DNA of 64,000 bases. Source: Candidatus Tayloriibacteriota bacterium. GTDB taxonomy: Bacteria > Patescibacteriota > Minisyncoccia > Phycocordibacterales > PALSA-1337. The stretch lies in assembly GCA_003151615.1 (NCBI GenBank), contig PLXZ01000001.1, positions 67,795-131,794 of the forward strand. The letters are read 5' to 3'. The notes below the pieces were generated by a model, which worked only from the letters and a program-made list of their open reading frames with translations, did no database searches and was not told the DNA's origin. Made by a program: the position numbers and the translations under genes. Each line of letters opens with the position of its first letter. The stretch's first letter is position 1. Below, in pieces: positions 6,474-9,225 of this stretch.

Positions 6474-7554
6474 TTATTCCTTCAGCCAATACCAAAACTG
6501 ACTCTCCACTTCTTGCTTGAATTCATACGCATCAGCATGAGAGAGAACACCGAGATATGAATGCAATGATCCGAACAGAGTCGTTTCTTTTATCTGTCCG
6601 CCTTTAAATTTAGTGACCTGTTCCCGTAATTTTTTCATCATCCGCTTCTTTGTTTTAGTCCTGACAAGAATATGATATGGTAGTACGACATACCCGAGAA
6701 AATCGATACCCTGCGTGCACGACCGTATTTCAACTTTCCGAGGATGGAGTTCAAGAAGCAGTTTTTCCCTCAAAAAAGTCCTAACCAAAGGTAATATTTT
6801 TTGCAAATAATCAATACTGCCAGAAACGATGACAAAATCATCCGTATACCGCGCATAGTTTTTAACCTTAAGCCCATGCTTCATAAACTGATCGAACTCA
6901 TTCATATAAACATTGGCGAAAAGCTGGGAAGTAAGGTTCCCTATAGGTATTCCTACCCGGCGCGAAGCGCCGAGTACTCTCTCTCTCTCTCTCTCTCTCT
7001 CTCGTACTGCTGACCGAATAACTTTCGATGATTTCCTTAAGAAGGTTCTGAGTCTCGGCATCTTTCACTTTTGCATTGATGATTTCCAAAAGCACGTCAT
7101 GATCGACGCTGTCGAAAAATTTCTGAACGTCGCATTTGAGGACAAAACAGGGACGGGTATAGTTGGCACTGATTTTTCTAATAGTGTCCCGAAGATACAG
7201 CATTCCCTTGTGAGTGCCTTTGCCGATTCTGCAGGAGAACGAGGTGGAAATGAAGGTTGGCTCAAATATGGGATTCAATATTTTAAACACCGCGTGATGG
7301 AGGACTCTGTCACGGACGGTTGCCTTGTAGATATGACGTCGTTTCGGATCGCATATCCAAAAAGGATAATATCCGCCGTGCCGGTAGGTACAATCTTTAA
7401 GTTCCCGATAGAGCTTGAAAATGTGTTCTTCAAGTTGCCGCTCGAACCCTGCCACATCAGGCCTGTTTCGCTTGTCCGACTTGAACACATTCCACGCGCG
7501 AAAGAGCGTCTGTGGAGAAATTATTGACCAGTATATATCCTTATAAATTTTCAT
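6474..7554 (-). CDS. DGR reverse transcriptase, split into two overlapping ORFs (6898..7554 and 6474..7061) by a +1 frame change inside a (GA)13 tract
   Basis: N-terminal LFRAWNVFKSDKRNRP...YYPFWICDPKRRHIYKATVRDRVLHHAVFKILNPIFEPTFISTSFSCRIGKGTH; motif 4 IPIGNLTSQ (DGR-specific I/LGxxxSQ); motif 5 YTDDFVIV; both ORFs contain (RE)n from the repeat. Confidence 0.85.
6977..7003. repeat. dinucleotide microsatellite (CT)13 on + strand, (GA)13 in RT sense, encoding (RE)n; site of the RT frame break
   Basis: ctct+(ct)10+ctc read directly at 6977-7003, flanked by gtact...gtact. Confidence 0.95.
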
Positions 7555-7556
7555 AT

Positions 7557-7907
7557 ATGAATGAATTAGACATACCCATCTTCAAAAAAAGTTACGATCT
7601 CTACAAAGATTTCTATAACCTGCGCCTATCCGTTCCCAAGCAAGACCGCTATACGCTTTGGCAGAAATGCGAAAGCCTACTGATTGAAGTTTTGGAAGGC
7701 ATCCTTCTCGCAAGTCAGCAGTCAAAGTCGGAAAAACTACCGACCCTAGAAAAGACGAGCGTCAAGTTGAATTTCCTTCGAGTCTGTATCCGCCTCATGA
7801 AAGACATTAAGGCGATTGACTCCAAGAAATATATCATCATCGAAGCGAATCTCGACGAAATCGGGAGAATGCTCGGGGGATGGATACGGTCAACAAAGGA
7901 GCGTTAA
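7557..7907 (+). CDS. avd: Avd-like accessory variability determinant (four-helix-bundle / 23S rRNA IVS protein family), 116 aa, on the opposite strand to RT, TR and target
   Basis: KSYDLYKDFY...PKQDRYTLWQKCESLLIEVLEGIL and C-terminal EANLDEIGRMLGGWIRS closely resemble the Bordetella phage Avd ...AEVGRILGSWIAR motif; start ATG 7557 lies 2 bp from the RT start codon (7554, opposite strand). Confidence 0.6.
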   Translation: MNELDIPIFKKSYDLYKDFYNLRLSVPKQDRYTLWQKCESLLIEVLEGILLASQQSKSEKLPTLEKTSVKLNFLRVCIRLMKDIKAIDSKKYIIIEANLDEIGRMLGGWIRSTKER

Positions 7908-7953
7908 CAGAAACTTCCGCTTTTGTGGCGGAAGTTTCTTTGGATAGAGTTTG

Positions 7954-8072
7954 ACTGCCTGGCAGCCGAAACACCGATATTGTCGTTGCGATTGTCGTCG
8001 TTCCAGTTGTTGACGTTGAGACCTGTGGAATCGAAGTTGCCGACGTTGACGTGGTTACCGTCCGAATCGAGA
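7954..8072 (-). repeat. DGR template repeat (TR), 119 bp, AAC-codon rich (LDSDGNHVNVGNFDSTGLNVNNWNDDNRNDNIGVSAAR in the VR frame)
   Basis: 119/119 alignable to 8424-8542; every internal difference is at an adenine of this copy (- strand). Confidence 0.85.
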
Positions 8073-8354
8073 TATTGCCCGTTCCCGTCCGCGTCACCGA
8101 GAATCGAGGTTTACTAGCTTTTCAGCTCTATATCCTCTCATCCCTGAATTGTATTCGAGAGCAGTTTTTTCAAAACACCTCCTCTAAAAACGGGCAAGAA
8201 GTTCTCTCTATCCTTAATCGCGCTCTGCCGTGATCCGTAAACCACTGGCACTCCGGCGATATCTCAAGGCGAGATATCTCGCGAGCTTGAACCGTGATCC
8301 AAGCTACAGTAGCAAGATGGAAATATCATATCGTTTTTTGTATATAAAAGAAAG

Positions 8355-8384
8355 AGCCTCCGCGAAAAAATTCGCGGAGGCTCA
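8355..8384. terminator. perfect 13-bp hairpin GAGCCTCCGCGAA-aaaa-TTCGCGGAGGCTC, about 40 nt downstream of VR and target gene stop
   Basis: read directly; on - strand followed by T-rich tract; position matches the hairpin/cruciform element required downstream of VR in characterised DGRs. Confidence 0.55.
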
Positions 8385-8421
8385 AGTGTTCAAGAGGGAC
8401 AAGCCCTCAAGGGATCAAGAA

Positions 8422-9225
8422 TCACTTCCTGGCAGCCGAAACACCGAGAGAGTCGTGGCGACTGTCGTCGTACCAGTGGCTGACGTAGAGACCTGTGGAA
8501 TCGAAGCGGCCGACGCGGACGCGGTAACCGTCCGAATCGAGACTGGACGTCCGAACGTAAACGCCTTCGAAGAGTCGGACACCACGAACCTCGAAATAGG
8601 TCGTGATGAACCAGCTCATCTCGGCAGCGTTCGGCACCTTCTCGAGTGCGGAGAGAAGCTTGTTCTGCTCGTTCCAGTTTTTGCTGGTCGAGTTCGAAAC
8701 AGGCGTCTTCTTGATCAGGAGCCAGCCGAAGGACGTCTTGTCCTCGCGGGCGAACTTCTGATCGGCATACCATCCACCAGTCTTCGAGTAGAAGTGGGCG
8801 GACTGGATCTCCCGAACGTCGAGCGTGGAGCACGCTTGCGGCGGTGCAGGCATGACGGCGTAACCGTTGTCCTTGCACCACTTGAGAATGTCCTCCGACG
8901 GCAGACTTTCAGCGAGTGCCGTGATCTGTTCGACGGTGTAAACGATGCTCGGGCGAGCCTTGGTGACTTCCTCGGGCGTAATGAAATCCGCGCCGAGGAT
9001 TGACTGAGCCAGACCGTAGTCGGGCGCTTTCGCTCCGAAGCGACGGATGCCTTCTGCGAGATACACGGCGAAGCCGGGATGCTCGTTCAGGATCTGTGCG
9101 CTTTCGTCGTTGAGTCCCGCCTTGTTGTATTGGGCGCGGAACGTTTCGGTAGCTCTCTGTCCTTTCGGACTGTCTGCGGTTACCAGTGCAGACGTGTTCA
9201 ATGTTTTCATCGACATCATCTCCAT
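8422..9225 (-). CDS. DGR target (variable) protein, 267 aa, C-terminal ligand-binding region encoded by VR (...GYRVRVGRFDSTGLYVSHWYDDSRHDSLGVSAARK*)
   Basis: VR occupies last 39 codons and ends 2 codons before TGA stop; antisense ORFs 8230..9003(+) and 8390..8881(-) judged spurious. Confidence 0.75.
   Translation of the reverse strand: MEMMSMKTLNTSALVTADSPKGQRATETFRAQYNKAGLNDESAQILNEHPGFAVYLAEGIRRFGAKAPDYGLAQSILGADFITPEEVTKARPSIVYTVEQITALAESLPSEDILKWCKDNGYAVMPAPPQACSTLDVREIQSAHFYSKTGGWYADQKFAREDKTSFGWLLIKKTPVSNSTSKNWNEQNKLLSALEKVPNAAEMSWFITTYFEVRGVRLFEGVYVRTSSLDSDGYRVRVGRFDSTGLYVSHWYDDSRHDSLGVSAARK
8424..8542 (-). repeat. DGR variable repeat (VR), 119 bp, forming the 3' end of target gene 8422..9225
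   Basis: 15 substitutions relative to TR, all at TR adenines (TR AAC to VR TAC/CGC/AGC/CAC; AAT to AGT/TCT); one extra non-A difference at the 3' end (IMH versus IMH*-like). Confidence 0.85.

Follow-up and report, generated by a model that had tools for sequence, protein, structure and literature searches.

The prototype of the diversity-generating retroelements (DGRs) is that of the phage BPP-1, made up of mtd-VR, avd, TR and brt, where VR and TR denote the variable and template repeats, avd the accessory variability determinant and brt the gene for the reverse transcriptase (RT). How cellular DGRs avoid the continual overwriting of a useful variant is an open question and, to our knowledge, little is established about the regulation of DGR activity in cells. 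Frame changes within a gene are used for control in other settings. In the contingency loci, repeat tracts such as the CT/GA repeats of Helicobacter pylori oipA and sabA or those of the phasevarion mod genes act as switches, and in IS-element transposases, dnaX and prfB, programmed frameshifting or transcriptional slippage sets the dose of an enzyme. Among the bacteria of the Candidate Phyla Radiation (CPR), the order TR-(avd)-RT, designated B3, makes up 90% of the DGR set of Wu et al. 2018 (PMC5758913). Here we describe an element of an ultra-small CPR bacterium, from a stretch of 64,000 nt of the Candidatus Tayloriibacteriota contig PLXZ01000001.1 (the window), which on sequence comparison is supported as a DGR of CPR type and whose RT gene is thrown out of frame by a pure (GA)13 microsatellite. 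The reading that we favour, and consider fairly probable, is that this tract constitutes an on/off switch operated by slipped-strand changes in the number of GA units, by which the mutagenesis carried out by CPR-type DGRs would be gated.

The RT gene of the window extends from 7554 to 6474 on the minus strand and is divided between two frames. The N-terminal frame (6898..7554, 218 aa as sequenced) encodes the conserved N-terminal part of the enzyme as far as the tract, after which it runs out of frame and stops at 6898. The C-terminal frame (6474..6976) belongs to an open reading frame (ORF) that is already open from 7061 (7061..6474, 195 aa) and contains PIGNLTSQ, which includes motif 4 (IGNLTSQ), as well as the catalytic YTDDF and the thumb. 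The (GA)13G microsatellite that separates them lies at 6977..7003 of the minus strand, between KCDVQKFF and PIGNLTSQ, and represents both the frameshift site and the proposed switch. It is 100% pure and the only dinucleotide repeat of at least 6 units in the 64 kb, where no homopolymer of 9 or more is present. The addition of one GA unit gives an intact RT of 360 aa and the removal of two units an intact RT of 358 aa. At 13 units the product is the 218-aa one, devoid of motif 4 and of the catalytic YTDD, and at 12 units it amounts to 199 aa. The original prediction, made from the sequence without database searches, had described a complete DGR whose RT carried IGNLTSQ and YTDDF on the same strand as the repeats; both DGR-type motifs are indeed found there, but the RT is not a single ORF and the element is not complete, its RT frame being interrupted at the tract.

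Regarding the affiliation of this RT, its best solved relative is chain 8ub7_A (328 aa, deposited as 'Reverse transcriptase'; E 1.8e-41, 146 bits), which we take to be bRT, the DGR RT of the Bordetella phage BPP-1. The next solved relatives, of the retron and group II types, are found at E 1e-20 or worse with at most 76 bits. With that identity assumed, sequence comparison places the enzyme nearer to the RTs of DGRs than to those of the group II or retron type. The NCBIfam group II model matches it with 147 bits, under the cut-off of 300 of that model, in a collection that holds no DGR-RT model. Those of its relatives that bear names come from metagenome-assembled genomes (MAGs) of Patescibacteria/CPR bacteria, save a few records labelled Gammaproteobacteria. 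The tract is translated as (Arg-Glu)n in every frame. The alignment to 8ub7_A breaks precisely at this site, with query residues 177-197 facing chain residue 173, and an AlphaFold model of the repaired RT, with a mean predicted local distance difference test score (pLDDT) of 82.5, has its sole segment below 50 at residues 186-198, that is, in the insert. Because the alignment break and the segment of low pLDDT coincide with the tract, the (Arg-Glu)n insert looks like a surface loop that the modelled enzyme would tolerate. An insert of (Arg-Glu)2 or longer occupies the same site in 12 of the best 120 intact RT homologues, and others of similar identity are devoid of it.

The length of the tract varies between otherwise identical copies of the cassette. 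The Avd protein of the window is encoded on 16 public contigs, 10 of which were fetched for comparison. A tract of 27 nt is shared by the window, L121 (probably the source record of the window itself), L126, L128 and L129, and a tract of 25 nt is present in L122, L123 and L125. Over the 1,800 nt of TR-avd-RT, L122 and L123 each align to the window with 0 mismatches and one 2-nt gap, and the same holds for L125 over the 1,510 nt that it covers. Both lengths are out of frame (OFF), the in-frame (ON) lengths being 23 or 29 nt. More allelic states are displayed by a sister cassette, whose RT belongs to the same 90% protein cluster and whose members have identical N-terminal protein sequences. ON alleles of this cassette occur with 11 units (358 aa) on 1 contig and with 14 units (360 aa) on 2, and OFF alleles with 12 units on 10 contigs, 13 units on 2, 15 units on 1 and 16 units on 2, so that 3 of the 18 contigs are ON. 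At the DNA level, its alleles of 23 nt (ON), 25 nt (OFF, 10 contigs) and 29 nt (ON) show 0 SNPs (single-nucleotide polymorphisms) in the remaining 1,056 nt of the RT gene. Three further lineages have multiple tract alleles behind identical or near-identical N-termini, and in one of the three (L103) an intact 356-aa allele is among them. Hence, as in contingency loci, a coding repeat sets the frame and its length is polymorphic at 0 SNPs, with 12 versus 13 units in one cassette and 11, 12 and 14 units in the other. The sister cassette and the L103 lineage each comprise ON as well as OFF alleles, and only OFF alleles are seen in the cassette of the window. The sister cassette (L211-L222, e.g. 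L213 2648-4079) is placed at a different genomic location, beside PsbP-like and Zn-ribbon genes, and co-occurs with the window cassette in the samples ERZ27249861, ERZ27249030 and JGI 3300029908.

To place these alleles in a wider frame, metagenome contigs were scanned, irrespective of reading frame, for (GA)>=6 followed by 12-42 nt and then by DNA encoding PIGNLT. The scan returned at least 120 tract loci, which at 75% aa identity group into at least 67 clusters. Among the matches listed, to which the counts of this survey refer throughout, 98 loci could be scored for frame: 17 are in frame, 45 need one additional unit and 36 need one unit less. Consequently 81/98 tract-bearing RTs (83%) are out of frame, and those in frame are fewer than the third of the loci that chance would give (p = 3e-4, or 0.002-0.004 once the loci are dereplicated). 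These figures also bear on the trivial explanation that the frameshift is a sequencing or assembly artefact hiding an RT that is truly intact. Dinucleotide repeats are prone to stutter in the polymerase chain reaction, with products short of one unit as the commonest outcome. Nevertheless, the lengths of the window cassette recur in independent samples and pipelines (27 nt five times, counting L121, probably the window's own record, and 25 nt three times) and 25 nt recurs in ten sequences of the sister cassette; in addition, the loci lacking a unit are only slightly more numerous than those having one too many (45 vs 36), which is not what stutter predicts. Because lengths recur across samples and the two states are about equally common, we give an assembly error next to no credence.

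Apart from the shift itself, the out-of-frame genes are well preserved. Their N-terminal part comprises at least 174 open codons in 71/75 loci and their C-terminal part at least 131 in 70/72, and this intactness holds in every class of tract length. Moreover, all out-of-frame loci have a downstream frame that stays open when followed back across the tract; the upstream extent of this opening varies from 0 to 175 nt. An A-biased TR/VR pair accompanies 27/41 out-of-frame loci of at least 3.5 kb and 6/10 of the in-frame ones; these 33 pairs all share the strand of the RT and lie upstream of it, at an offset of 400-570 nt, and one more out-of-frame locus has a distant A-biased pair. The best 80 tblastn matches in GTDB genomes gave 51/51 scorable loci in frame, 7 of them with tracts; since that selection favours intact genes, it was not used for ON/OFF frequencies. 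A phage origin of the tract-bearing RTs was rejected, as the tract-plus-motif pattern had 0 matches in 2.9 million viral contigs.

The open downstream frame, with an ATG at 7061 in the case of the window, could be taken to mean that the RT is split, its two ORFs being translated separately and assembling into an active enzyme. Such an arrangement is hard to credit. The break falls within the fingers/palm region, there are alleles and relatives whose RT is an intact single chain, the upstream extent of the open frame is as variable as indicated above, and no sign of a ribosome-binding site or of a conserved start was found for the second ORF. A different possibility is that the element is decaying, so that a neutral or harmful microsatellite has inactivated the RT and the differences in the VR date from an activity since lost. 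Full translation of the RT is indeed impossible from the sequence as it stands, and over half of the candidate DGRs were dropped by Wu et al. 2018 (PMC5758913) because of premature stops and similar defects. Against this stand the occurrence of the tract at the same RT site in the 67 or more clusters, the paucity of second lesions in out-of-frame copies (71/75 and 70/72 free of them), the coexistence of ON and OFF alleles with 0 SNPs elsewhere in the RT and, as described below, VRs that differ at TR adenines between assemblies whose target gene is otherwise identical. Owing to the conserved site, the lack of second lesions and the turnover of the VR, decay into a pseudogene appears highly unlikely.

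The alternative that deserves most attention is recoding, according to which the out-of-frame state would be the designed one and a 2-nt slip of the RNA polymerase or the ribosome on (GA)n would yield a low dose of full-length RT. After a shift of 2 nt, tRNA-Glu on GAG and tRNA-Arg on AGA would re-pair perfectly, and a downstream hairpin may help. Recoding would explain why 83% of the loci are out of frame, with in-frame loci fewer than chance would produce, why out-of-frame genes are otherwise free of lesions even with tracts of 12-15 nt, and why all of them have an open downstream frame that spans the tract. Directly 3' of the tract, the window in fact has a GC-rich hairpin with a 10-bp stem and a UUC loop (6954..6976, minus strand; -16.9 kcal/mol, z = -3.7), whose stem is kept in the sister cassette with an altered loop. 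Nonetheless, the required shifts go in both directions at roughly equal frequencies (45 vs 36), which excludes a one-directional programmed ribosomal frameshift; slippage that made the frame irrelevant would leave one third of the loci in frame instead of the 17% seen; and ON alleles exist at the DNA level. The tract site has no X XXY YYZ slippery motif and no homopolymer, and we know of no (GA)n recoding signal that has been described. Nor did the hairpin qualify as a general stimulatory element, its mean z being -0.77 over 71 distinct spacers, without significant enrichment relative to 43 tract-less relatives (Mann-Whitney p = 0.13), and it is regarded here as a local trait. A TAA that often follows the tract was likewise discarded as a frameshift 'hungry stop', being merely the +2 frame of a conserved GAG AGT AAA (Glu-Ser-Lys) and lying in the zero frame in only a minority of loci. 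Taken together, we regard recoding as unlikely, albeit not to be neglected. Its broadest form, in which many CPR DGR RTs would be made only through a 2-nt slip, at a very low dose and by an undescribed dinucleotide-repeat recoding signal that changes in DNA length merely retune, seems to us somewhat more doubtful.

The substrate on which the switch would act is well defined. Two gapless copies of 119 nt are found on the minus strand at an offset of 470, the TR at 7954-8072 and the VR at 8424-8542, and they differ at 16 positions, 15 of them internal and located at adenines of the TR, where the VR has 6 C, 5 G and 4 T. With 32 A among the 119 nt of the TR, the probability that all 15 differences fall on A is 1.4e-10. 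The VR (8424..8542, minus strand) forms the last 39 codons (229-267) of the target gene. The TR (7954..8072, minus strand) is contained in a non-coding stretch of 514 nt between the target gene and avd; translated in the frame of the VR it reads LDSDGNHVNVGNFDSTGLNVNNWNDDNRNDN... and includes 10 Asn codons (AAC/AAT). Twelve codons are altered in the VR, namely all ten Asn codons, one CAC changed to CGC (His to Arg) and one ATC changed to CTC (Ile to Leu). A 20-mer at the 3' end of both repeats, TCGGTGTTTCGGCTGCCAGG, is GC-rich, identical in TR and VR and present at only 2 sites in the 64 kb, where the RT motif has a single site; the window thus has one TR, one VR and one RT. The sixteenth difference, a C in the TR and an A in the VR (7957/8427), lies 3 bases ahead of the stop codon of the VR-containing ORF. 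It falls in the TR 3' end composed of TCGGTGTTTCGGCTGCCAGG plus CAGT (7954..7977, minus strand), whose VR counterpart at 8424-8447 has A for C at 8427. This C/A difference is retained in all four VR alleles seen, the TR being invariant (100% identical across all 10 related contigs fetched), and the TR 3' ends of relatives have a G[CA]AGTC motif (31 related loci compared). On these sequence grounds, the difference is consistent with a boundary of the IMH/IMH* (initiation of mutagenic homing) type, and the TR 3' end resembles an IMH*.

Most of what the original prediction had said about the repeats agrees with the alignment and the ORF list: the absence of gaps, the placement of all 15 internal differences at TR adenines, the VR as the last 39 codons of 8422..9225 on the minus strand and the non-coding, Asn-rich TR. 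The only difference at a TR base other than A is indeed the one at the 3' end, which had been reported as G versus T on the plus strand at 7957/8427. Its list of changed codons was right in placing VR changes at Asn codons but fell short by one, with 11 entries for 12 altered codons, and attributed to Asn a CGC that derives from CAC.

The target gene (8422..9225, minus strand) encodes a protein of 267 aa with 333 homologues, all of them annotated as 'hypothetical'; the few that bear organism names come from Patescibacteria MAGs and one is labelled Thermodesulfobacteriota. No Pfam or NCBIfam family matches the protein, and the C-type lectin fold that had been anticipated for its C-terminus found no support, since there is no match in sequence or structure and the VR part of the model has a pLDDT below 50. 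L123, obtained from another sample, differs from the window target at 0/317 positions outside the VR and at 25/119 inside it, 22 of these at TR adenines (Fisher p = 1e-15). Judging from these sequences, the DGR has been active recently and has replaced its VR in natural populations. Another allele of the target gene (L122, L124, L127, L130) differs from that of the window at 23/683 positions outside the VR (3.4%) and has its own VR. The TR-avd-RT that accompanies it equals that of the window wherever covered, bar one GA unit, and either the cassette or the target gene may thus have been exchanged or have recombined. One of its carriers, L124 (3.9 kb), has the window-type TR-avd-RT at 2829-3900 and, across the target gene, an inverted second copy at 13-1281 with 73% nucleotide identity over the TR, the avd gene and the beginning of the RT; on this contig a target has cassettes on both its sides, unless the assembly is chimeric.

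From these elements a mechanism for the switch can be put forward. The RT, together with Avd, would copy the TR RNA into cDNA and misincorporate opposite adenines, and the mutagenised cDNA would overwrite the VR up to the IMH boundary, so that 12 codons in the C-terminal region of the target would be randomised anew. Production of the RT would be gated by the hypermutable (GA)n within its gene: at 12 or 13 units translation would stop at a fragment of 199 or 218 aa without the catalytic half, and slipped-strand mispairing to 11 or 14 units would restore an RT of 358 or 360 aa with the (Arg-Glu)n loop at its surface. Most cells would be OFF, keeping their current VR frozen, and rare ON descendants would diversify it. 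That DNA slippage, rather than slippage of the RNA polymerase or the ribosome, turns the RT on, that the switch has been selected for this purpose and that the ON state goes together with VR change are all steps that we infer.

A slipped-strand switch is in our opinion the best fit because the tract is the sole polymorphism, its alleles differ by complete units, one and the same N-terminus can be followed by any of the three frames and ON alleles exist as a minority (about 17% of the sister-cassette contigs and of the loci surveyed alike). The shortage of ON alleles would be expected if the mutator were costly and useful VR variants were fixed by switching it off. Several observations weigh against this interpretation. 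The window and L123, whose VRs differ, both have OFF consensus alleles, as recoding would allow. No ON allele of the window's own cassette appeared when the products of 9-18 units were looked up by exact match, which found only the OFF alleles of 12 and 13 units; a 15-unit allele of this cassette, also on record, is OFF as well. Short tracts of 6-7 units, in which switching should be slow, are mostly out of frame yet undecayed, and for these genes slippage at the level of RNA or the ribosome fits at least as well.

The remaining components of the element conform to the CPR pattern. The avd gene (7557..7907, plus strand, 116 aa) matches NF033474 DivGenRetAVD with 83.7 bits (cut-off 80) and PF22296 bAvd with 3.7e-17 and 63 bits (cut-off 40), in line with the Avd-like ORF predicted between TR and RT, and its strand is opposite to that of RT, TR and VR. 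The order TR 7954-8072 (minus), avd 7557-7907 (plus) and RT 7554-6474 (minus) corresponds to B3 with avd on the reverse strand, which is normal for the CPR lineage given the predominance of B3 in the CPR set mentioned above. The start codons of RT and avd are divergent and only 2 nt apart (CAT-AT-ATG, 7554-7557), so the promoter of each must sit inside its neighbour and their mRNAs would overlap in antisense at the 5' ends; promoter-like matches occur at 7855..7828 (minus), inside avd, and at 7136..7163 (plus), inside the RT gene. A predicted stem-loop of 12 bp (7909..7939), beginning 15 nt past the end of the TR and 2 nt past the stop of avd, probably terminates avd transcription and may in addition form the 3' end of the TR RNA. 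Stem-loops of 9-14 bp are present 15-25 nt past the TR end in most of the 31 related loci (e.g. L011, L049, L053), and since their stem sequences are unrelated, it is the structure and not the sequence that is conserved. Across relatives it could be a bidirectional terminator or part of a functional DGR RNA. An Rfam search matched no family in or near the DGR.

Concerning the signals of the target gene, an intrinsic terminator is located at 8354..8383 (minus strand; a 13-bp stem followed by a T run), and the best promoter match is a sigma-70-like sequence at 9358..9386 (minus strand; TTGACT-17-TATTAT with a TG extension), a match to consensus only. A near-palindrome, TCTTGCTAC-N-GTAGCWAGA, has two copies in the 64 kb (0.05 expected), at 8300-8319, about 230 nt upstream of the TR, and at 9396-9416, just upstream of the -35 of the target promoter. 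By its position it may be an operator that the TR RNA shares with the target gene; a conserved role as operator was rejected, the presence of the palindrome being limited to the cassette of the window (other assemblies included) and not extending to the sister cassette or to other lineages. Further away, a large serine recombinase with Resolvase, Recombinase and Zn_ribbon_recom domains (Pfam) is encoded at 11080-12420 (minus strand), 1.9 kb from the target gene and separated from it by 3 small ORFs to which no function was assigned. The window also includes a full-length match to the LOOT RNA (Rfam RF03000) at 31425-31545 (plus strand; 88 bits vs a gathering score of 46.4) and a 12-nt tandem repeat of 2.3 copies at 2945-2972, directly downstream of which is a tRNA gene (2977-3048).

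If a slipped-strand switch operates in these elements, CPR bacteria would practise a two-tier form of bet-hedging, in which a fast and reversible switch picks the cells that hypermutate and the return to OFF fixes the variant produced. The tract is present at the same RT site in no fewer than 67 metagenome RT clusters (75% aa identity). Pipelines that require an intact RT ORF, like the one used by Wu et al. 2018, would treat some four fifths of such elements as dead and discard them, and the activity of CPR DGRs may be under-counted because filters of this kind drop tract-bearing elements. The DGR surveys searched for such terms, including those of Wu et al. 2018 and Roux et al. 2021, make no mention of a microsatellite or a frameshift in the RT, and the premature-stop filter of the former would have excluded most tract-bearing copies. 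No literature that connects DGRs with phase variation, with simple-sequence repeats or with frameshifts in the RT was found in a search whose reach did not extend to Paul et al. 2017, the main paper on CPR DGRs.

In comparison with the BPP-1 prototype, the element of the window shares the adenine-specific transfer from TR to VR, a VR with which the target ORF ends, a fixed 3' difference resembling that between IMH and IMH*, Avd and an RT with IGNxxSQ. It departs from the prototype in that its avd is on the opposite strand and between TR and RT, it is cellular (CPR) and not phage-borne, its target has no recognisable C-type lectin fold (pLDDT below 50 in the VR model) and its RT has a 20-residue insert, largely encoded by (GA)n, at residue 173 of 8ub7_A and out of frame. 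With the DGRs of CPR bacteria (B3 in Wu et al. 2018, PMC5758913, and DGR clade 2 in Roux et al. 2021, PMC8144416) it has in common the gene order, the reversed avd, a target without known domain, as most CPR targets, and a cellular rather than viral location. Except for an RT ORF that is not intact, the window element is an ordinary B3 member. Programmed frameshifting and transcriptional slippage have similar traits, such as two overlapping frames, a catalytic part encoded downstream, a conserved out-of-frame layout and a hairpin just past the slip site, as present in the window. However, the window has no known slippery motif, shifts are needed in both directions, the length of the tract is polymorphic in the DNA and in-frame alleles exist. 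With the contingency loci based on simple-sequence repeats, finally, the tract shares a perfect coding repeat in which the change of a unit toggles the frame, its condition of sole polymorphism and, in the sister cassette and the L103 lineage, the coexistence of ON and OFF states. Unlike in those loci, the hosts here are environmental CPR bacteria and not host-adapted pathogens, OFF is dominant (83% among the matches listed), and the gated gene encodes neither a surface protein nor a methylase but a mutator that rewrites another gene.

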